Source of the DNA: Candidatus Moraniibacteriota bacterium
GTDB lineage: Bacteria; Patescibacteriota; Minisyncoccia; Moranbacterales; UBA2206
Reading direction: 5' to 3'
DNA: 32,126 nt
Assembly (NCBI GenBank): GCA_023261605.1
Contig: JAHFOP010000001.1
Coordinates: 1-32,126 of the forward strand
Below, piece by piece: positions 6,149-25,784 of the stretch. A program made the position numbers and the translations under genes. Below the pieces are notes generated by a model that had not been told where the DNA came from, did not search any database, and was given only the letters and a program-made list of their open reading frames with translations. Each line of letters starts with the position of its first letter. The first letter of the stretch is position 1.

Positions 6149-6457
6149 GCCGGGTTAGCTCAGTGGTAGAGCAGAGGACTGGTTTTCGGTCCGTTCCAGA
6201 GTAATTTGGAAATGAAAATTGGGTGAATTCGAGGAAGCCTAAGTTGTCGAAAGATAATAGGGTAATCTCGAGCTAAGCCTCAAAGGGTCTAAGTTTTGAG
6301 GAAAGTGTAGAGACTAGCAGGTGAGTCCCAACAATAATCTTGCAAAAGCGCCCAACTCCCGCCTGGCGGGATGATGAAATAGTCCGATCCTTGAGGAAAC
6401 TCAAGAAAAATGATAAGGAAAATCCTTGTGTCCCCAGTTCAATCCTGGGACCCGGCA
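6149..6457 (+). tRNA. tRNA-Phe(GAA), split gene: 5' exon 6149-6180, group I intron 6181-6417, 3' exon 6418-6457
   Basis: The joined exons give GCCGGGTTAGCTCAGTGGTAGAGCAGAGGACT|GAAAATCCTTGTGTCCCCAGTTCAATCCTGGGACCCGGCA. This folds as a canonical 73-nt cloverleaf with anticodon loop CUGAAAA, and it closely resembles my recollection of bacterial tRNA-Phe. Confidence 0.9.
6181..6417 (+). ncRNA. group I self-splicing intron (IC3-like, ORF-less, 237 nt) in the anticodon loop of tRNA-Phe
   Basis: P1: exon GGACU (6176-6180) pairs with GGUCC (6188-6192), with a U.G wobble at the splice site. P10: UUUUC (6183-6187) pairs with 3' exon GAAAA (6418-6422). Omega-G is at 6417. P2 6194-6211. P3 TTGGG (6219-6223) / CCCAA (6327-6331). 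P4 6228-6233 / 6267-6272. P5/P5a carries a GAAA loop (6238-6261) and a CCTAAG receptor-like motif. P6 6278-6284 / 6295-6301. Conserved core GTGTAGAGACTAG is at 6305-6317. P7 GACTA (6312-6316) / TAGTC (6380-6384). P9 is CTTGAG-GAAA-CTCAAG (6390-6405). Confidence 0.88.
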
Positions 6458-6465
6458 CAGATAAA

Positions 6466-6904: not shown

Positions 6905-7423
6905 TTAGGCGACAAAATCTCGGTAAAAAATAACGCTGTCGCCGGCTGTCAAGCTGCCCATGACATGTTGGTAACTGATTATTGGTTCTTTTTCTTGATC
7001 ATCATCTTCCCTTGGACGGTCTAGTTTCAATACATCATAGTCATAGGGCGCAAGACACCAGATTTTATCACGGATCATTTGCCAAAATTTCTCATTTTCC
7101 TGAACGGCAAATGCCATGGCTCCAATAATCCCAAGGAGTTTTCTTTCCCTGTATTTTGCAATCATTTCATAGACCCATGGACTCGTCCAGCCACTAGCAA
7201 CTACTTCGTATATTTCTGCGACAAATTTTTTCCCGCGGTTTAGAGTCCAAACCTTCTCGTAATTCCCAGCATATTGAGGGTAGGGGCAGTTTGCAAAAAT
7301 ACTGCCGAGATGGAGAGCAAAGTATTCTCCCACTGTAACGGACGGGATTTCGATCACAACCTCTCCAATCGGCTTTAAAGTGTCCTCTGTTCTCGGCCAA
7401 ATCGCATTTTTAATTATTTCCAT
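6905..7423 (-). CDS. hypothetical cytoplasmic protein (172 aa), no recognisable domain
   Basis: The start is moved to the internal ATG at 7423 (MEIIKNAIWP...), which is preceded by AAGGAGG 8 nt upstream. The 33-codon N-terminal extension in the ORF track has no RBS. Confidence 0.6.
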   Translation of the reverse strand: MEIIKNAIWPRTEDTLKPIGEVVIEIPSVTVGEYFALHLGSIFANCPYPQYAGNYEKVWTLNRGKKFVAEIYEVVASGWTSPWVYEMIAKYRERKLLGIIGAMAFAVQENEKFWQMIRDKIWCLAPYDYDVLKLDRPREDDDQEKEPIISYQHVMGSLTAGDSVIFYRDFVA

Positions 7424-7517
7424 AGTGCAGCCTCCTTTGTTTAGATATGGGCGAATTGTTAATGTTCTCTGTCCTTCTTTTAGACATCCAGATAGCTTAG
7501 CAAAATATTGGATAATT

Positions 7518-7545
7518 GTCAATATATTTAAAAGTATATATTGAC
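7518..7545. promoter_or_regulatory. perfect 10-bp inverted repeat (GTCAATATAT-N8-ATATATTGAC), candidate operator
   Basis: Read directly. The right arm overlaps the -35 hexamer of the regulator promoter. It lies in the divergent intergenic region. Confidence 0.55.
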
Positions 7546-8806: not shown

Positions 8807-9229
8807 GTGGATAAATCAATTGTATCACTGAGGAAAAAGTGGACAAAGAAGGCTCAAATATTGTTACCAGGTCACGATCTGCAATGGAGATATGGCCAGC
8901 TGCGTGATTTTGGACAAGCAGGGGGAGGCCATTCGGTAAAAGATGTGCCGGGTGTCCCTGTGATAATGAGGAATGGCGGGAAAACGCGGACTGCTGACAC
9001 GCTTTTCCCAAAGCCAGTCTATAACAAACCATCATTGAGGCAAAGCGTGGCGACTTTCATTCCCATAACTCAGGTTAAGGAATTGTCTCCTGCAGAACTG
9101 AAATTTCTTCAGAGCTGCGAAATAACCATGGGTTATTTCGACTCCCATGTGGGAAACTTTGTTGTTAAAAAGAAAGACCAACAATTTCGTGGGCAGGGTA
9201 CCAGTGCTTGTGAATGGGAGATGATATAA
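8807..9229 (+). CDS. orphan basic soluble protein (140 aa, GTG start); coding status not fully certain
   Basis: AGGAGG (8794-8799) lies 7 nt upstream of the GTG. The unit has its own promoter and a strong terminator. No motif recognised. The composition (Gly/Arg/Gln/Pro-rich, higher GC) is atypical for the window. Confidence 0.55.
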   Translation: MDKSIVSLRKKWTKKAQILLPGHDLQWRYGQLRDFGQAGGGHSVKDVPGVPVIMRNGGKTRTADTLFPKPVYNKPSLRQSVATFIPITQVKELSPAELKFLQSCEITMGYFDSHVGNFVVKKKDQQFRGQGTSACEWEMI

Positions 9230-9370: not shown

Positions 9371-9835
9371 ATGGCAGTAGAATTTAAATCAAGGTTCAAA
9401 AGAACTTTTGATCTTAAAAAACAAAACAAACAAAGAATGTTTATCGTTCTGATTTTTTTTCTGGTTTCTTTTTTTGCCGTTCATTTTTATTCACTGCATT
9501 TCAGCCGATATGTTTATGTCAAAGGTTATCACATCCATCATTTCTATTTTGGCACGGCCGCGCTGTTTTTGGGTGGGATCTTGGCCATTTTGGACAACAG
9601 CCAACGCCGGATGAAGATTGCGGCCGCGCTCATTGGGATTGGGGCGGGACTTTTTGTGGATGAAATTGGATTGCTTTTGACTTGTACGTCTTTTGATAAG
9701 ACTTGCGCTTATATTTTTCCAGACACACCTGACATTGTTATGATAGTGGCCATCATCATAATCTTTTTTATTGCTCTGGCTGATTCTGATCTTATTGCTT
9801 TGAAAAACAGAATATTCTTCAAAAAAAAGAGGTAG
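9371..9835 (+). CDS. small integral membrane protein (about 4 TM segments, His-rich loop YHIHHFYFG)
   Basis: Hydrophobic segments FIVLIFFLVSFFAVHF, ALFLGGILAIL, IAAALIGIGAGLFV and IVMIVAIIIIFFIAL. An extended -10 (TGaTACAAT) lies at 9312-9320. Confidence 0.65.
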   Translation: MAVEFKSRFKRTFDLKKQNKQRMFIVLIFFLVSFFAVHFYSLHFSRYVYVKGYHIHHFYFGTAALFLGGILAILDNSQRRMKIAAALIGIGAGLFVDEIGLLLTCTSFDKTCAYIFPDTPDIVMIVAIIIIFFIALADSDLIALKNRIFFKKKR

Positions 9836-9920: not shown

Positions 9921-11093
9921 ATGTTTTTTGTTGCCAAAAATAGAATTATTTTTTTTATACTGATACTTCTTTGTTTGGGAGGATTTATTTTTCTAGTGTA
10001 TCGAGCATATCATGCGCATCAAAAGCCGGTGATCAAAGAAGCTGTGCCTAGTGGTCCGAGCCGAGTGGACAATGAGGATGTTTTTTTCGCCCCGCCCTAT
10101 CATTACAATCCGCCACCACTTTCGATGAAAACGATGAAGTTGAAAGGGTGCGTGGCAGATGGACTTTTGAGTGGTTATGGAGAGGATACGGATGCGGAAG
10201 TGGCTATGATTAATCGGAGTGAATGCCTGTATCTTCATCGTGCTTTGGAAACCTGGGCCTCGCCGCCGGATTTCGCCCAAGCCTTGGATGTGATGCAAAA
10301 AATCACTAAGCCAAATGTCATGTACGGGATGTTTTTGGCGGAGGATATTCGGCGAGATGTTAAATATTTTTATCCGGATGAAAACCGTTATTTTGATTTT
10401 TCAGATATGTGCAGAGACGGATCGCAAAATGCTTGGGGGGAGCATACTTGCAAGCCGAATATTGGCAGTAAAGAATATCGCAAGTATTTGAGCTTTGTAA
10501 CTCATAAGGCCATGGACATTGGCATTCAGAGTTTTCTTTTTGGACAAATCTATTTTCAAGATAATCCTGACCTGGGACAATCGAAGGTGCAAGAAGTGTT
10601 GGATGATATGCGCAGTTATGCCAAGAGAAAAGGCATCCAAATTGCGATTGGAGCGCAAACTGGAAACAATACCAATGAAAACTATCTGAGGAAATTTGAT
10701 TATATCGAGGGCGGAGTGGGAATTGGGGACAATGGCGTCATTGAGAATGGAGCCTGCTGGAGTCAACTTTCAAGCTGTTGGGCGCTTCTTTGGAATGATC
10801 AATATGCTTTGCGCGCTAACAATGTGATTGTGGCACTGGATTGGAGCGGCCTCAAATTTGATGATATGAGTTCTTTCGCTCGGATGGACGCGGCCAAACG
10901 GAAAGCTACTTTGAACCAGTTGTACAACTACTTTACGGCTAAGCGCGTGGGTTTTCTTATGCCACTTATGGCTACGCTTAATGTTGACAATGGCGGGTGC
11001 CATGGGCCTAAAAAACGCTTTTACAGCGCTAGTAATGATTATAACTGTCGGGACGAGAATGTCATAAATAATCTTTTGAAAAACGGCAAGTAA
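9921..11093 (+). CDS. N-terminally membrane-anchored, Cys-rich extracytoplasmic protein (390 aa), possibly a TIM-barrel glycan-hydrolase-like fold
   Basis: A single N-terminal TM segment (IIFFILILLCLGGFIFLVY) is followed by a hydrophilic domain containing about 10 Cys. An alternating beta/alpha-like pattern (e.g. MDIGIQSFLFGQIYFQD, IQIAIGAQ, VIVALDWSG) is the only basis for the fold guess. Confidence 0.6.
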   Translation: MFFVAKNRIIFFILILLCLGGFIFLVYRAYHAHQKPVIKEAVPSGPSRVDNEDVFFAPPYHYNPPPLSMKTMKLKGCVADGLLSGYGEDTDAEVAMINRSECLYLHRALETWASPPDFAQALDVMQKITKPNVMYGMFLAEDIRRDVKYFYPDENRYFDFSDMCRDGSQNAWGEHTCKPNIGSKEYRKYLSFVTHKAMDIGIQSFLFGQIYFQDNPDLGQSKVQEVLDDMRSYAKRKGIQIAIGAQTGNNTNENYLRKFDYIEGGVGIGDNGVIENGACWSQLSSCWALLWNDQYALRANNVIVALDWSGLKFDDMSSFARMDAAKRKATLNQLYNYFTAKRVGFLMPLMATLNVDNGGCHGPKKRFYSASNDYNCRDENVINNLLKNGK

Positions 11094-20680: not shown

Positions 20681-21265
20681 ATGATCGAAGAAAATAAAAT
20701 ACAATTAGAACAAATTGTAGCGCCATCAACCTTTGGCACTCAATTCTTGAATCCGCAGAAAATTGTTGCACAATTGGAAATGCGTCCTGGGATGAAGGTG
20801 GCGCACTTCGGTTGTGGCACTGGATATTTCACTTTTCCAATTGCTGGTAAAATTGGAGAAAAGGGTACAATCTGGGCTTTGGACATTTTGGAACATAAAA
20901 TCGAACTCATTCGCAGCAACACTAAAGTTCTCGGATTGGGGAATGTGATTGTGAAAAGAGTCAATTTGGAAAAACCAAATGGATCCGGCTTGGAAGATGG
21001 TAGTGCGGACTGGGTGGTTATGGTAAATATGCTTTATCAAAACAGTAGGCAGAATCAAATCCTTGGAGAAGCGAAGCGAATATTGAATAGTACTGGGCGT
21101 ATTCTTTTGATTGATTGGAAAACAGCCAGCGGATCGTTTGGACCCGAGATGCATACTCGAATAGCAAAAGAAGACTTGCTCAAGATGATTCGAAAAAATG
21201 GATTGGGAATCGCTCAAGAATTGGAAATCGGTCAATTGTATTTTGGAATGATTCTGACTAAATAA
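20681..21265 (+). CDS. class I SAM-dependent methyltransferase
   Basis: Motif I VAHFGCGTGYFT, acidic residue ALDIL, and motif-post-I DWVVMVNMLY. Confidence 0.75.
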   Translation: MIEENKIQLEQIVAPSTFGTQFLNPQKIVAQLEMRPGMKVAHFGCGTGYFTFPIAGKIGEKGTIWALDILEHKIELIRSNTKVLGLGNVIVKRVNLEKPNGSGLEDGSADWVVMVNMLYQNSRQNQILGEAKRILNSTGRILLIDWKTASGSFGPEMHTRIAKEDLLKMIRKNGLGIAQELEIGQLYFGMILTK

Positions 21266-21293
21266 ATTCCTTAAGTTTATAAAAAATTTGGAA

Positions 21294-22703
21294 ATGAAGT
21301 ACTATATAAAAATAATTATCCTGGTTATTTTCCTTGGCGGACTTTTGACGATTTCGGGTTGTGGCTGCAAACAAGCAAATCCTCATCAATATGATTTGAG
21401 TCTGGAGATTTGGGGGACATTGGATGAGGGAGATGCTTTAAATGGAATTTTTGAAAATTATAGGAAAATCGACGCAAATATTTCCAAGATAACTTATAAA
21501 AAAATCGCTACGGATACTTATAAAAAAGAATTGATAGATGCTTTAGCCTCGGGGCAAGGGCCGGATATTTTTTTATTGAATAATACTTGGTTACCATCGT
21601 TTAAAGATAAAATTGTGGCGGCACCGACGACACAAGGAGTGCTTAACGAACAAAAATTTCGCAGTAACTTCGTGGATGTGGCAGCGAATGATTTTATAAA
21701 TGACGGAAAAATATATGCGGTTCCTTTGTCAGTCAATAGTCTAGGTTTGTATTATAATAAAGATCTTTTCAATCAAGCCGGCATCACGACTCCTCCAGTA
21801 GATTGGAACCAATTCATAGATGATGTGAGAAAACTTACTAAAATTGATGCGACTGGTGAAATCAGGCAATCCGGAGCAGCCATTGGCACGACGTACAATA
21901 TTAATCGTTCAACGGATGTTTTGAATCTTATTATGCTACAACGTGAAACGAATATGGTGAATGATCAAGGTCGAGCCAATTTCAACAGTTCTATAATACT
22001 AGGCAATCAGACAGCTTTTCCGGGGGAGGATGCGCTTAATTTTTACACTCAATTCGCTTCTTCCAGCTCGCCGAATTATACTTGGAATCCGAATCAACAT
22101 TATTCCATTGACGCTTTTGCGGAAGGGCATGTGGCTATGATGTTCAATTATTCTTGGCACATAGCGACAGTGACTAATAAGGCACCGAAATTAAATTTTG
22201 CCGTGGCTCCTGTGCCACAGTTTGCGGATACTCCTAAGGTTAATTTTGCAAACTACTGGGCATTTGGAGTAGCTAAAAATAAGATTGCAGAGAAGGGTAG
22301 TACTCAGAGTACTAAACCTCCGGCGAGCAATGATGAACGGGTGGCAGAAGCGTGGAAGTTTCTCACCTATCTGACTACCAAGCCGGATGGGACTTTTGTA
22401 GCGACTTCTTCTGGAATAGGACTGGGAAAAACTCTCAGTGCGGATTTTGATCCAGCTAAGAGTTATTTGGAGAAAACCGGTGAGCCGGCGGCCAGAAGGG
22501 ATATTATTGAAATTCAGAAAAATGATCCGACTATAGGGGTGTTCGCTACAGATAATCTGATTGATAAGAGCTGGAGCGAATCTGATCCATCTTCAATTGA
22601 AGCGATTTTTGCTGAAATGATTGATCAGGTTAATAAAGGACAGTCAACTGTTTCAGATGCGCTTAAAACCGCGTCAACTCGAGTGCAATCATTAAGCAAC
22701 TAA
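21294..22703 (+). CDS. extracellular solute-binding lipoprotein (ABC transporter SBP, family 1 / sugar type), orphan
   Basis: Lipobox LLTISGC, plus general SBP-family-1 features (GQGPDIFLLNNTWLPSF, YAVPLSVNSLGLYYNKDLF). The ATG at 21294 is preferred over the TTG at 21288. No permease or ATPase genes are adjacent. Confidence 0.8.
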   Translation: MKYYIKIIILVIFLGGLLTISGCGCKQANPHQYDLSLEIWGTLDEGDALNGIFENYRKIDANISKITYKKIATDTYKKELIDALASGQGPDIFLLNNTWLPSFKDKIVAAPTTQGVLNEQKFRSNFVDVAANDFINDGKIYAVPLSVNSLGLYYNKDLFNQAGITTPPVDWNQFIDDVRKLTKIDATGEIRQSGAAIGTTYNINRSTDVLNLIMLQRETNMVNDQGRANFNSSIILGNQTAFPGEDALNFYTQFASSSSPNYTWNPNQHYSIDAFAEGHVAMMFNYSWHIATVTNKAPKLNFAVAPVPQFADTPKVNFANYWAFGVAKNKIAEKGSTQSTKPPASNDERVAEAWKFLTYLTTKPDGTFVATSSGIGLGKTLSADFDPAKSYLEKTGEPAARRDIIEIQKNDPTIGVFATDNLIDKSWSESDPSSIEAIFAEMIDQVNKGQSTVSDALKTASTRVQSLSN

Positions 22704-22716
22704 TTTTTTAAATAAA

Positions 22717-23352
22717 ATGAAAAAGCGATTATTTATTTTTTTTACTTTGGCGGGATGGATGTCTTTTTGTCCAGCAACTTTTGCTGACACTAGCACTGGC
22801 ACTGGCAGCGCAACCTTTGTTAACCCGTTGGGATCAGTAACGACTGTTTCTGCTCTTTTGAGTTCTATCCTAACTAACTTGATGGGTGTGATCGCGATGA
22901 TATCTTTGATTTTTATTATTTTGGGCGGGTTGATGTATATGTTGAGCGCGGGTGATGAAACAATGGTGACGAGAGCCAAGAAGACTTGGACGGGAGCGGT
23001 GATTGGATTAGCTATTGCTATGGCAGCTCCAACATTTTTGAAAACAATCCAAACGATTTTGGGCGGAAATAGCAACACAGGCGCCAGCGCGGATAGTTGG
23101 GTGAGCAGTTCGCTCACTCTTCAGCAAATCGCAATGAATGTTTTGAATTTGTTGTTGTCAGTTATCGGAATTATTGCTATGATTGCAATGGTTGTAGGTG
23201 GCATAATGTATCTAACGGCGGCGGGGAATGAGAAGATGGTTGACAAGGGCAAAGATATTTTCAAGTATTCCATTATTGGAATAGTGGTGGCTCTCTCTGC
23301 TTTGGTAGTCATCAATCAAGTCAGTGTGCTTTTGACAGGCTCTGCAGGATAA
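22717..23352 (+). CDS. secreted double-module TrbC/VirB2-like (T4SS-pilin-like) membrane protein
   Basis: A signal peptide (...CPATFA|DTS) is followed by two copies of a TM-Y[ML][LT][SA]AG[DN]E-loop-TM module (aa about 55-105 and 145-200). Confidence 0.75.
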   Translation: MKKRLFIFFTLAGWMSFCPATFADTSTGTGSATFVNPLGSVTTVSALLSSILTNLMGVIAMISLIFIILGGLMYMLSAGDETMVTRAKKTWTGAVIGLAIAMAAPTFLKTIQTILGGNSNTGASADSWVSSSLTLQQIAMNVLNLLLSVIGIIAMIAMVVGGIMYLTAAGNEKMVDKGKDIFKYSIIGIVVALSALVVINQVSVLLTGSAG

Positions 23353-23408
23353 AAACAAAAATCAGGTGATTTCTAAAGATAAAAAATAAAATAGATTGGA
23401 GGTGCAAT

Positions 23409-23771
23409 ATGAAAAATAAAATTAAATCAATCGGATATGGCGCAATTTCAGCTATGATATTGGCGGCCCCGGCTCTGGCCAACGCTCAATTAGACGTCAC
23501 GGCCGGTGGAGGAACTGGTCTTCCGAGTAACAGCATATTTGCGATTGTTACCAATATTATGAAATGGATGTTAGCCATCGTGGGCATTGCGGGAGTGATC
23601 GGATTTGCTTTGGCAGGATTGCTTTATCTAACGGCGGCCGGAGATGAAACCAGAATTGGAACTGCAAAGAGCGCAATGCTGGCTTCCATTATTGGAGTGA
23701 TTGTAGCCTTAGCTGGTCTCGTGGCGCTGCAATTTGCTAAGACAATGTTGGGAGGTTCAGCACAATTCTAA
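23409..23771 (+). CDS. secreted TrbC/VirB2-like (T4SS-pilin-like) protein, single module
   Basis: GGAGG RBS, signal peptide ...APALANA|Q, then IAGVIGFALAGLLYLTAAGDETRIGTAKSAMLASIIGVIVALAGLV. Confidence 0.78.
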   Translation: MKNKIKSIGYGAISAMILAAPALANAQLDVTAGGGTGLPSNSIFAIVTNIMKWMLAIVGIAGVIGFALAGLLYLTAAGDETRIGTAKSAMLASIIGVIVALAGLVALQFAKTMLGGSAQF

Positions 23772-23811
23772 TTATAAGGAAAAGCCTTTTGAAATTTCAA
23801 AAACAAAAAGT

Positions 23812-23842
23812 GGCTGTGGATAATCCCAGCCTTTTTTGTTTT
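23812..23842 (+). terminator. intrinsic terminator between pilin-like genes 2 and 3
   Basis: Stem GGCTG(T)GG/CCCAGCC, then TTTTTTGTTTT. Confidence 0.6.
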
Positions 23843-23868
23843 CAAAATAAACAAAGAAGTGTTATAAT
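23841..23868 (+). promoter_or_regulatory. promoter of the third pilin-like gene
   Basis: TTCAAA-N16-TATAAT with an extended TG (TGtTATAAT). Confidence 0.45.
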
Positions 23869-23906
23869 ATGTTTGTAAATAAAATAAAATAGAATATAAA
23901 AATAAA

Positions 23907-24275
23907 ATGAAAAACACGAAAAAAGTATTATTTTTAAGTCTGGTTATTCTAGGGGGAATGTTTTTTGTTGGGCAAGCGCAAGCAGCTTCTACAGGCTGGA
24001 ACATTGACAGTCTAACTTCCTATGGCCTCTCAAGCGCATCTATTAAGGATATCCTGGTGAATATTTTAAATTGGATCCTAGGCATCTTAGGAATTGCGGG
24101 TGTGATTGGTTTTGCTATTTCAGGGTTTATGTATCTTTTGGCCGCGGGCAATGAAACAATGACAGGAAATGCCAAAAAAGCCATGACAGCTTCAATCCTG
24201 GGTGTGGTGGTCGGCCTTTCTGGTTTAGTTATTATCCAAGCGGTGGATATGGCTCTTAACGCAACTACTTTCTAG
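23907..24275 (+). CDS. secreted TrbC/VirB2-like (T4SS-pilin-like) protein, single module
   Basis: Signal peptide ...VGQAQA|AS, then IAGVIGFAISGFMYLLAAGNETMTGNAKKAMTASILGVVVGLSGLV. Confidence 0.78.
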   Translation: MKNTKKVLFLSLVILGGMFFVGQAQAASTGWNIDSLTSYGLSSASIKDILVNILNWILGILGIAGVIGFAISGFMYLLAAGNETMTGNAKKAMTASILGVVVGLSGLVIIQAVDMALNATTF

Positions 24276-24393: not shown

Positions 24394-24420
24394 GGAGTTC
24401 GCGTGAGCGGACTTTTCTTT
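24394..24420 (+). promoter_or_regulatory. terminator-like hairpin in the nusA leader (candidate attenuator)
   Basis: A 7-9 bp stem (AGTTCGC/GCGGACT, one G.U pair) with a GTGA tetraloop, followed by TTTTCTTT. It lies 24 nt upstream of the nusA ATG. Confidence 0.5.
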
Positions 24421-24443: not shown

Positions 24444-25784
24444 ATGGCGAGAAAAAAAGTGAAAACGGAAGAAGAGATACAAAGCGAAAGCATCGGAGAT
24501 TTTGGTCGAGCTATCACGGCTCTGTGTGAAGAGAAAGGGATTTCCAAAGAACGCGTGATTGAAACAATTGAGGCGGCGCTTTCCGCAGCCTATAAAAAAG
24601 ATTATGGAAAACGCGGTCAAAATATTCGAGCTGATTTCGATGAAGTGAGTGGTGCGACCAAGTTTTTTTTGGTTAAGGAAGTGGTAGATGAAACAACCAG
24701 AGAATTTGTAGCGGATATGGAAGAGGCAGATGAGGCACTGGTTGACGCGGAAAAAGGCAAATCACAAAAAAGAGTGGAAAAGGAAAAGAAAGAAACCAAA
24801 GAGGAAGAATCTACTAAAAATGAAGATTCGACAGACGAGGAGGATAAATTGTCGCGTTTCAATCCGGAACGGGATCTGACCATACTTGAAGCAAAGGAGA
24901 TCAAAAAGAACGCTAAAATTGGCGATGTAATTGAAATTGAATTGCCACAGCACAGTGACTATGGTCGAGTTGCGGCGCAAACCGCCAAGCAAGTGATCAT
25001 TCAAAGAATTCGTGAGGCCGAGAGAGATGCGATGTATGATGAATATAAAAACAAGGAAGGTGAACTTCTAAGCGGAGTGATTCAAAGAGTGGAGGGGCGG
25101 AATGTTTTTGTGGACATTGGTAAATCAGTGGGTGTGCTTTTCCCGAGCGAGCAAATGGAAAGAGAAAATTATCGAGTAGGACAACGCTTAAAAGTTTATG
25201 TTTCCAATGTGGACGCGGGAACGCGTGGCCCTGGCATAACCTTGAGCCGAACTGCTCCGGAAATGGTGCAGAAGATGTTTGAGTTGGAAGTGCCAGAAAT
25301 TTTTGCCGGAACAGTCCAAATAAAATCAATTGCCCGCGAAGCCGGTGAACGCTCTAAGTTGGCGGTGGCATCTTCGGAGGAAGGTGTGGATCCGATTGGC
25401 TCATGCGTCGGGCAGAAAGGTACGCGGGTGCAAGCGGTTATTGATGAATTAGGTGGAGAAAAAATTGATATCATTCTTTGGAATGACAATATCGCTAAAT
25501 TTATCTCAGCGGCTCTTTCGCCGGCTAAAGTTTTGAAAGTGGAAATCAATGAAGATCAAAAAGCAGCTGTGGCCGTGGTACCAGAAGATCAATTGTCGTT
25601 GGCCATTGGCAAACGCGGGCAAAATGTGCGTTTGGCTGCCAAATTGACTGGTTGGAAAATTGACATCAATGGAGCCAAGGTAGAAGCAGAGACGGAAGCT
25701 ATTGCAAAGGATGAAGATATTGAAAAAATTGAAGATACTGAAGAAGCCGAAGTTGTTGCGGATGACAAGCCAGAAAATAAATAA
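24444..25784 (+). CDS. nusA: transcription termination/antitermination factor NusA (with a charged insertion of about 60 aa in the N-terminal region)
   Basis: S1 domain (GVIQRVEGRNVFVDIG) and two KH domains (GVDPIGSCVGQKGTRVQ, AIGKRGQNVRLAAKLTGWKIDI). Confidence 0.93.
   Translation: MARKKVKTEEEIQSESIGDFGRAITALCEEKGISKERVIETIEAALSAAYKKDYGKRGQNIRADFDEVSGATKFFLVKEVVDETTREFVADMEEADEALVDAEKGKSQKRVEKEKKETKEEESTKNEDSTDEEDKLSRFNPERDLTILEAKEIKKNAKIGDVIEIELPQHSDYGRVAAQTAKQVIIQRIREAERDAMYDEYKNKEGELLSGVIQRVEGRNVFVDIGKSVGVLFPSEQMERENYRVGQRLKVYVSNVDAGTRGPGITLSRTAPEMVQKMFELEVPEIFAGTVQIKSIAREAGERSKLAVASSEEGVDPIGSCVGQKGTRVQAVIDELGGEKIDIILWNDNIAKFISAALSPAKVLKVEINEDQKAAVAVVPEDQLSLAIGKRGQNVRLAAKLTGWKIDINGAKVEAETEAIAKDEDIEKIEDTEEAEVVADDKPENK

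Follow-up and report, generated by a model that had tools for sequence, protein, structure and literature searches.

The 32,126-nucleotide stretch of DNA analysed here (the window; positions 1 to 32,126 of contig JAHFOP010000001.1 of a Candidatus Moraniibacteriota bacterium) comes from a groundwater metagenome, forms part of the 70,959 bp ENA contig k141_3835511 of assembly ERZ27279563 and carries three consecutive genes for small pilins of the VirB2/TrbC type. In our opinion these proteins are probably exported by Sec and assembled together by the monoderm-type type IV secretion system (T4SS) of the lineage, the core of which would be encoded elsewhere. The cluster is an ordinary member of the VirB2-like pilin arrays documented in the Patescibacteria, and its orthologs have already been catalogued. 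Three features nevertheless appear to be undescribed in the literature on these arrays: a two-module pilin present once per array, polypilins of six modules, and loci that join the remote Moranbacteria array to a T4SS core. VirB2-like pilins in a monoderm-type T4SS are a notable recent finding in the Patescibacteria, T4SS and array being essential in the one species tested, and the comparative picture presented below ties the "orphan" arrays of the Moranbacteria to a T4SS through these contiguous loci. The three genes and the parts of the first are:

22717..23352, plus strand: gene 1, two-module VirB2/TrbC-like pilin of 211 aa (ORF; PF18895 82.1 bits, in two stretches)
22717-22785, within gene 1: signal peptide, about residues 1-23
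22846-23058, within gene 1: hairpin 1, residues 44-114
23059-23118, within gene 1: Gly/Ser/Asn-rich linker of 20 residues, 115-134
23119-23337, within gene 1: hairpin 2, residues 135-207
23409..23771, plus strand: gene 2, single-module VirB2/TrbC-like pilin of 120 aa (ORF; PF18895 30.4 bits)
23907..24275, plus strand: gene 3, single-module VirB2/TrbC-like pilin of 122 aa (ORF; PF18895 37.0 bits)

An earlier note on this DNA had described three consecutive plus-strand genes for signal-peptide proteins built from one two-helix module, and the open reading frames (ORFs), motifs and hydropathy all agree with that description. The signal sequences have predicted AXA-type ends (read by eye: between TFA and D in gene 1, ANA and Q in gene 2, and AQA and A in gene 3) and are followed by pairs of hydrophobic helices with a short charged loop between them. 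Gene 1 does carry two modules, its copies of the motif Y[ML][LT][SA]AG[DN]E lying exactly where the note had placed them (22936-22959 and 23209-23232), and the motif reads YLTAAGDE in gene 2 (23625-23648) and YLLAAGNE in gene 3 (24132-24155). A full-length alignment of the four modules has 9 invariant columns. AlphaFold models have the helical-hairpin topology that had been proposed: two hairpins for gene 1 (pLDDT 76.9; helices 44-76/81-114 and 135-167/172-207) and one for gene 3 (pLDDT 71.9; helices 46-78/83-118).

With respect to family membership, all three proteins pass the PF18895 (T4SS_pilin) cut-off of 26.6 bits, far beyond chance. In an alignment of gene 1 with 51 homologs from its two-module family, PF18895 matches 52 of the 52 sequences and PF04956 (TrbC/VirB2) matches 38 of them, with a best E of 5.7e-14. 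The TrbC/VirB2-type identity suggested by the earlier note is thus supported by the hidden Markov models, PF04956 contributing only by way of the relatives of gene 1, which itself has no match to that profile at E≤1. The T_virB2 profile of CONJScan also detects gene 1 orthologs (PMC12102498). Against NCBIfam NF045849 the three proteins align over nearly the full 80-position profile and score 38.9, 20.8 and 29.4 bits (genes 1 to 3), below its equivalog cut-off of 40 bits, which makes them related proteins rather than members. Profiles, together with the genomic context in relatives, thus support membership in the T4SS_pilin/VirB2 superfamily; structure comparison does not. A type IV pilin (T4P, PilA-like) identity was considered and rejected: there is no N_methyl or pilin Pfam match at E≤1, the signal sequences have AXA ends, and two helices in a hairpin make up the mature part.

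The relatives of these pilins are numerous. Gene 1 has 271 homologs, from metagenome-assembled genomes of Moranbacteria, Moraniibacteriota or Parcubacteria, some of them named "pilin" or "TrbC/VirB2 family protein" by NCBI; among the 120 listed, almost every one measures 175-360 aa and spans the greater part of the two modules. Used as query against a library of 50%-identity representatives, gene 1 finds 17,131 proteins at E≤1e-3, of which 248 reach E≤1e-30, and almost every one of the best 150 matches contains both modules in one stretch. Gene 3 has 32 homologs, nearly all of them PF18895 proteins, and a tblastn search with it against 72,556 plasmids gave no match. In a scan using one genome per species, relatives were present in 214 genomes, and we mapped the pilin modules and the backbone genes in the best 80 species-level loci. 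The layout that recurs is DHHA1-RbfA-IF2-DUF4446 on the minus strand, then a methyltransferase, a solute-binding protein (SBP) and the pilin array, followed in many loci by NusA, trigger factor and ClpP. Most of the 80 loci with flanks have the array at this one conserved backbone position. The array is thus a vertically inherited, lineage-wide core feature and not a mobile element. Its size ranges from 1 to 7 genes with a mode of 5 (62 complete arrays), so the three genes of the window are a small version of it. A single two-module gene is found in 58 of the 62 complete arrays and two such genes in the other 4, and its place can be first, middle or last.

Several further observations concern these relatives. 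An unknown gene pair (about 411 and 241 aa) lies between array and NusA in L007 (13625-15598, minus strand), where it has no Pfam match, and also in L020, L023, L064 and L077; it is absent from the window. Extra two-module pilins with a long N-terminal extension (321-838 aa) occur off the backbone site and not adjoining VirB4 in L051 (from 7997), L059 (from 9566), L084 (from 8621) and L076 (from 9191), the genome CAZRXW01 having two such extra loci, L079 and L084. Finally, about 20 records titled "uncultured Bdellovibrionales" or "Pseudobdellovibrionaceae" encode a two-module pilin, most of them having the Moranbacteria backbone as well, and their labels look wrong (L022, L028, L031, L043, L049, L051-L053, L056, L057, L059, L061, L066, L067, L076, L079, L081 and L084-L086).

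The link of such pilins to a T4SS can be followed both in published surveys and in our own loci. From a search with PF18895, PF04956 and CONJScan in 3,035 Patescibacteria genomes, Quinonero-Coronel et al. (2025; PMC12102498) reported 2,474 virB4 genes, 441 arrays of 2-11 pilin genes and VirB2-like pilins in 1,948 VirB4-positive assemblies, counts that bear out the statement in the earlier note that the T4SS_pilin family is common in the Candidate Phyla Radiation. The pilins lie near virB4 in 1,135 of these assemblies, that is, away from it in about 40%. Three gene 1 orthologs appear in Table S3 of the same survey under VirB2 "not associated with VirB4", namely KKQ13158 and KKQ16701 (both P0036 in our set, 64% identical to gene 1) and KKR20456 (P0074, 53%), and the table records VirB4, TrsD, VirB3 and another pilin elsewhere in the same three Moranbacteria genomes, with VirB6 in two of the three (PMC12102498).

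Pfam annotation of the large ORFs in the related loci revealed a more direct connection. In six of the 80 loci (L049, L056, L057, L060, L073 and L081) the orthologous two-module pilin is directly followed, on the same strand, by a PrgI-family gene, a TrsD-like ORF and the gene of a VirB4-like ATPase. Five of these loci show the methyltransferase-SBP-pilin site upstream; L073 starts at the pilin. The PrgI-family protein (10591-11061 in L049) is the counterpart of VirB3 and scores 40 bits with PF12666, the cut-off of which is 27. The TrsD-like ORF of about 230 aa gives a faint, below-cut-off match to the TraC/VirB4 N-terminal family PF11130 (E 0.016), which is weak evidence. The ATPase (603-608 aa; 11840-13654 in L049) has TraG P-loop, AAA_10 and DUF87 domains and matches PF19044 at 2.7e-28; its identity among the 120 matches listed is 75-81%, all 8,000 scored candidates have E≤1e-50, and the sources name VirB4 or TraC. 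Downstream of the T4SS genes, L049 continues with ComM, an RpfB-like lytic transglycosylase and KsgA. When Agrobacterium VirB1-VirB11 were compared by phmmer with every ORF in the related loci, only noise came back, this probe being too distant. The orthologous pilin thus adjoins the T4SS core in some members of the clade and lies apart from it in the others, a pattern most simply read as a single system with genes that rearrangement has separated. By analogy with the closest catalogued relatives, the genome of the window would have its VirB4 at another locus.

Modules 1 and 2 of gene 1 are only 30% identical, and module 2 has more in common with gene 3 (41%) and with gene 2 (38%); apart from genes 2 and 3, the closest pair with 61% over the mature part, the pairwise identities of the modules lie between 28 and 41%. 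The "internal tandem duplication" of the earlier note thus overstates how recent the event was. Homologs with 45-75% identity to gene 1 align across both modules, and the low identity between the modules, together with a two-module architecture kept across the 214 species-level genomes, rules out a recent internal duplication; as judged from these alignments, the two-module state is ancient, the result of either a fusion or an old duplication. The extreme cases are P0140 (555 aa) and P0176 (552 aa), where six consecutive T4SS_pilin modules form one chain, approximately a whole array in one gene. By Rosetta-stone logic, both the two-module fusions (248 clusters at E≤1e-30) and the six-module ones imply that the modules lie next to one another in the assembled structure. 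Such natural evidence suggests that co-assembly of the paralogs is to be favoured over their use one at a time for antigenic variation.

This last alternative deserves consideration, since tandem VirB2 paralogs have been proposed to serve antigenic or host-range variation in Bartonella and Anaplasma, and the same idea has been raised for the Patescibacteria arrays (PMC12102498). The paralogs would then be alternative major pilins, expressed singly or according to conditions, a proposal compatible with the copy number of 1-7 among relatives, with the predicted promoter that gene 3 has for itself after a terminator, and with the orthologs of gene 3 diverging faster than those of genes 1 and 2 and of the flanking genes. 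Genes 1 and 2, however, evolve at approximately the same pace as the SBP and DHH genes nearby and so are not hypervariable. Moreover, the retention of exactly one two-module gene in 58 of 62 arrays suggests fixed, distinct roles, and covalent fusions of two and six modules imply joint assembly. No strain-level variation was seen, in data too thin to judge. We consider it quite unlikely that the paralogs are alternative pilins; of the earlier suggestions of antigenic variation or of major and minor subunits, both are possible, and neither is specifically supported when only gene 3 outpaces its neighbours.

The proposed explanation can be set out as follows. The pilins would be exported by Sec and their signal peptide cut by signal peptidase, and the mature modules would be stored in the cytoplasmic membrane as hairpins, their two ends on the outer side and the short AG[DN]E...K loop on the inner one. 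Since both termini of a module are then on the same side, head-to-tail fusion is topologically allowed; gene 1 would be a covalent double pilin, the 20-residue linker of which could bridge adjacent subunits. A machine of VirB4, PrgI(VirB3), TrsD and VirB6 would extract this membrane pool and polymerise the pilins into a mixed structure, and the product may be a pilus or a conduit for contact with a host cell. We infer the dependence on VirB4, the co-assembly of the paralogs and the role in host contact from the family, the predicted topology and the relatives just described.

A more specific version of this explanation, prompted by the single two-module pilin of nearly every Moranbacteria array and by the rare six-module polypilins, would have the distinct VirB2 paralogs form a heteropolymer of fixed stoichiometry, in which the double pilin plays a dedicated role (nucleating, capping or register-setting) and the remote array supplies the bulk subunits of an essential host-contact organelle. 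To our knowledge no conjugative pilus has such an architecture, and we regard this version as doubtful. For structural biology, the prediction is a heteromeric VirB2 filament.

A number of observations weigh against assembly by a T4SS. To begin with, neither the 32 kb window nor the 10 kb 3' of it, approximately 42 kb together, contains any T4SS gene, the sizeable ORFs being housekeeping genes or without Pfam match, and the earlier note was correct that there is no secretion machinery near the pilin genes. Most of the related loci likewise have no T4SS genes within 10 kb of the array. In relatives that possess a remote array, a different pilin is linked to virB4; the remote array could therefore have some other purpose. 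The literature on the Patescibacteria reports no observed T4SS pilus in the phylum. The structural comparisons do not discriminate, because helical hairpins match many unrelated folds: Foldseek with the models of genes 1 and 3 against PDB gave nothing at E≤0.001, the best-probability match, for one hairpin of gene 1 and the sole suggestive one, being the CedA1 pilus 8dfu (probability 0.84, TM 0.56 on the target, E 1.1, not significant) and those of gene 3 being generic hairpins. Sequence searches of PDB with profiles of the pilins found nothing relevant. An hhalign comparison with a narrow profile of 4 Agrobacterium-type VirB2 sequences was in register and not significant (probability 2%, E 0.022). 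Lastly, contigs of the groundwater run reach about 6x at the locus and the metatranscriptome of the same sample has no RNA contigs there, which is uninformative on expression or strain variation.

From the isolation of the array the earlier note had concluded that the pilins may form a surface filament or membrane structure independent of a classical T4SS, perhaps for host attachment. An example would be an attachment fibre built by Sec/YidC alone or with unknown partners. The separate virB4-adjacent pilin of the relatives, which could be the dedicated T4SS pilin, and the recurrent unknown genes 3' of the array in some of them are points in its favour. We know of no VirB2-family protein, however, that polymerises without a VirB4 machine. 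Six of the 80 loci have the PrgI, TrsD-like and VirB4 genes directly 3' of the two-module pilin, and a T4SS is encoded elsewhere in the three catalogued relatives, which, for these relatives, is the finding that according to the earlier note would make the pilins ordinary. Dispersed T4SS genes are, moreover, common in the Patescibacteria, as the proportion of pilins near virB4 cited above illustrates (1135/1948; PMC12102498). A filament independent of the T4SS thus seems to us very unlikely.

Another possibility is that the pilins do act in a T4SS, as a channel or stalk element that spans the membrane or the wall in a monoderm translocon, and not as an extracellular pilus. No T4SS pilus is on record for the phylum, and the Patescibacteria system belongs to the same lineage as the classical Gram-positive T4SSs, which lack one. 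Gene 1, furthermore, has none of the long exposed N-terminal extension found in most of its library homologs. Yet those extensions, large, variable and extracellular on many homologs, are what one expects of surface-exposed subunits, and both the homology to pilus-forming TrbC/VirB2 and the weak fold link to CedA1 argue for a pilus. We therefore judge a channel or stalk unlikely, and retain the mixed assembly of the pilins by the T4SS, as pilus or conduit, as the preferred explanation.

As to transcription, the earlier note had placed a terminator and a promoter between genes 2 and 3:

23800..23842, plus strand: intrinsic-terminator-like hairpin and T-run 3' of gene 2 (RNA fold -19.9 kcal/mol)
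23839..23868, plus strand: sigma-70-like promoter TTTTCA-18-TATAAT with extended-10 TG, 5' of gene 3 (consensus scan, 10/12 matches)

The terminator has held up well: the hairpin has z = -5.47, none of 200 shuffles (0/200) folds as well, and a bulge explains why a consensus scan for terminators did not pick it up. The promoter is a consensus match in AT-rich DNA that is enriched in such sites (12 found against 5 expected), and it is thus plausible and unproven. Genes 1 and 2, with the upstream methyltransferase and SBP genes, are probably one transcription unit, and gene 3 would be transcribed from its own predicted promoter. In one contig of the source groundwater run there is a 3-nt deletion at window position 23890, in the A-rich leader of gene 3; coverage is low.

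Two genes precede the array in the window and belong to the conserved block:

20681..21265, plus strand: class I SAM methyltransferase, first gene of the conserved methyltransferase-SBP-pilin block, by synteny in related loci (Pfam Methyltransf_31 3.5e-17)
21288..22703, plus strand: orphan SBP_bac_1 lipoprotein of 471 aa (Pfam SBP_bac_1 4.7e-29; lipobox-like ...ISGC)

The SBP gene ends 13 nt before the start of gene 1, no ABC permease or ATPase partner for it was found by Pfam anywhere in the window, and about 70 related loci have an SBP gene ahead of the array. These facts could be taken to indicate one nutrient-capture device, with the SBP as the binding module associated with a pilus. In deeper relatives, however, the adjacency is broken by genes for BipA, a GH28 hydrolase and PMT glycosyltransferases between SBP and array, some of them on the opposite strand. 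Since the whole IF2-to-ClpP region is syntenic, backbone conservation explains the adjacency of SBP and array. The SBP is probably a backbone member and not part of the pilin system, and we reject it as a functional partner in the main idea; a joint nutrient-capture device appears extremely improbable.

The remainder of the window is chromosomal housekeeping DNA, according to Pfam annotation of the sizeable ORFs. Its genes include, in the first part, formate-tetrahydrofolate ligase, FolD, an RluD-like pseudouridine synthase, ribosomal protein L19, UDG, a DHH phosphoesterase, RbfA, IF-2, DUF4446 and GroEL; in the second part, the methyltransferase, the SBP_bac_1 lipoprotein and the three pilin genes are followed by NusA, DHH-DHHA2, trigger factor, ClpP, iPGM and RNase Y. 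The 10 kb 3' of the window encode HU, an M23 peptidase, MsrA/B, an amidase, rpoB and rpoC. Four window ORFs have no Pfam match (6905-7522 on the minus strand; 8807-9229, 9371-9835 and 9921-11093 on the plus strand); ORF 9371-9835 resembles a small multi-pass membrane protein and ORF 9921-11093 has an N-terminal membrane anchor. Between the array and nusA, which starts at 24444, the segment 24342-24415 contains a strong promoter-like TTGACA-17-TAGAAT with TG, then a hairpin and T-run (24394-24415), and resembles a leader or attenuator of the nusA operon. A group I intron (Rfam RF00028, 76.6 bits; plus strand) is located in a tRNA cluster (window 6149-6460, intron 6171-6406). Its flanks read as two tRNA halves (D-arm TAGCTCAGTGGTAGAGC, T-arm CCCAGTTCAATCCTGGG) that ARAGORN did not call; joined in silico they give a tRNA, of Phe or Ser identity depending on the exact splice sites.

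Among known systems, the closest are the VirB2 arrays of other Patescibacteria (PMC12102498; that of ML1, PMC10633639; and the "Sec-secreted array" of TM7x). They share with the window PF18895, the phylum, tandem and divergent paralogs with signal peptides, and pilin genes often away from virB4; the definition of an array (at least 2 pilin genes in tandem or one gene apart) covers the three genes here. The paralogs within arrays are reported to have a mean identity of 25% and a maximum of 54% (PMC12102498); those of the window are likewise highly divergent, genes 2 and 3 with 61% being slightly above that maximum. In S. epibionticum ML1 the VirB2-like pilin array is essential and is part of the T4SS cluster itself (Wang et al. 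2023, PMC10633639), whereas the array here is remote from any T4SS gene. Unlike what we describe, the published descriptions of Patescibacteria arrays make no mention of two-module pilins or of their conservation at one per array.

The classical TrbC/VirB2 pilins (PF04956; the Agrobacterium T-pilin and RP4 TrbC) share the build of a signal peptide and two hydrophobic helices joined by a short charged loop, and their profile matches 38 of the 52 family members; they differ in that gene 1 itself has no such match at E≤1, in the non-significant hhalign result, and in the monoderm-like host as opposed to a diderm one. Cyclisation or acetylation are features of the T-pilin, TrbC and F-pilin. CedA1 of Aeropyrum pernix (Ced/Ted pili, PDB 8dfu) is also a VirB2-like hairpin pilin served by a VirB4-type machine in a cell without outer membrane, although the Foldseek match is not significant (E 1.1) and there is no match at the sequence level; the Ced system imports DNA. 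The pilin-like protein Mbov_0395/MMCAP2_0565 of the integrative and conjugative elements of Mycoplasma (NF045849) is similarly a small two-helix protein of a monoderm conjugation system, the scores of our proteins being below its cut-off. Finally, the VirB2 arrays of Bartonella and Anaplasma (cited in PMC12102498) resemble the present one in the tandem amplification of divergent VirB2 genes, but they belong to effector-translocating T4SSs of intracellular animal pathogens and their paralogs are thought to be antigenically variable, whereas the fusions and conserved roles seen here point to co-assembly.

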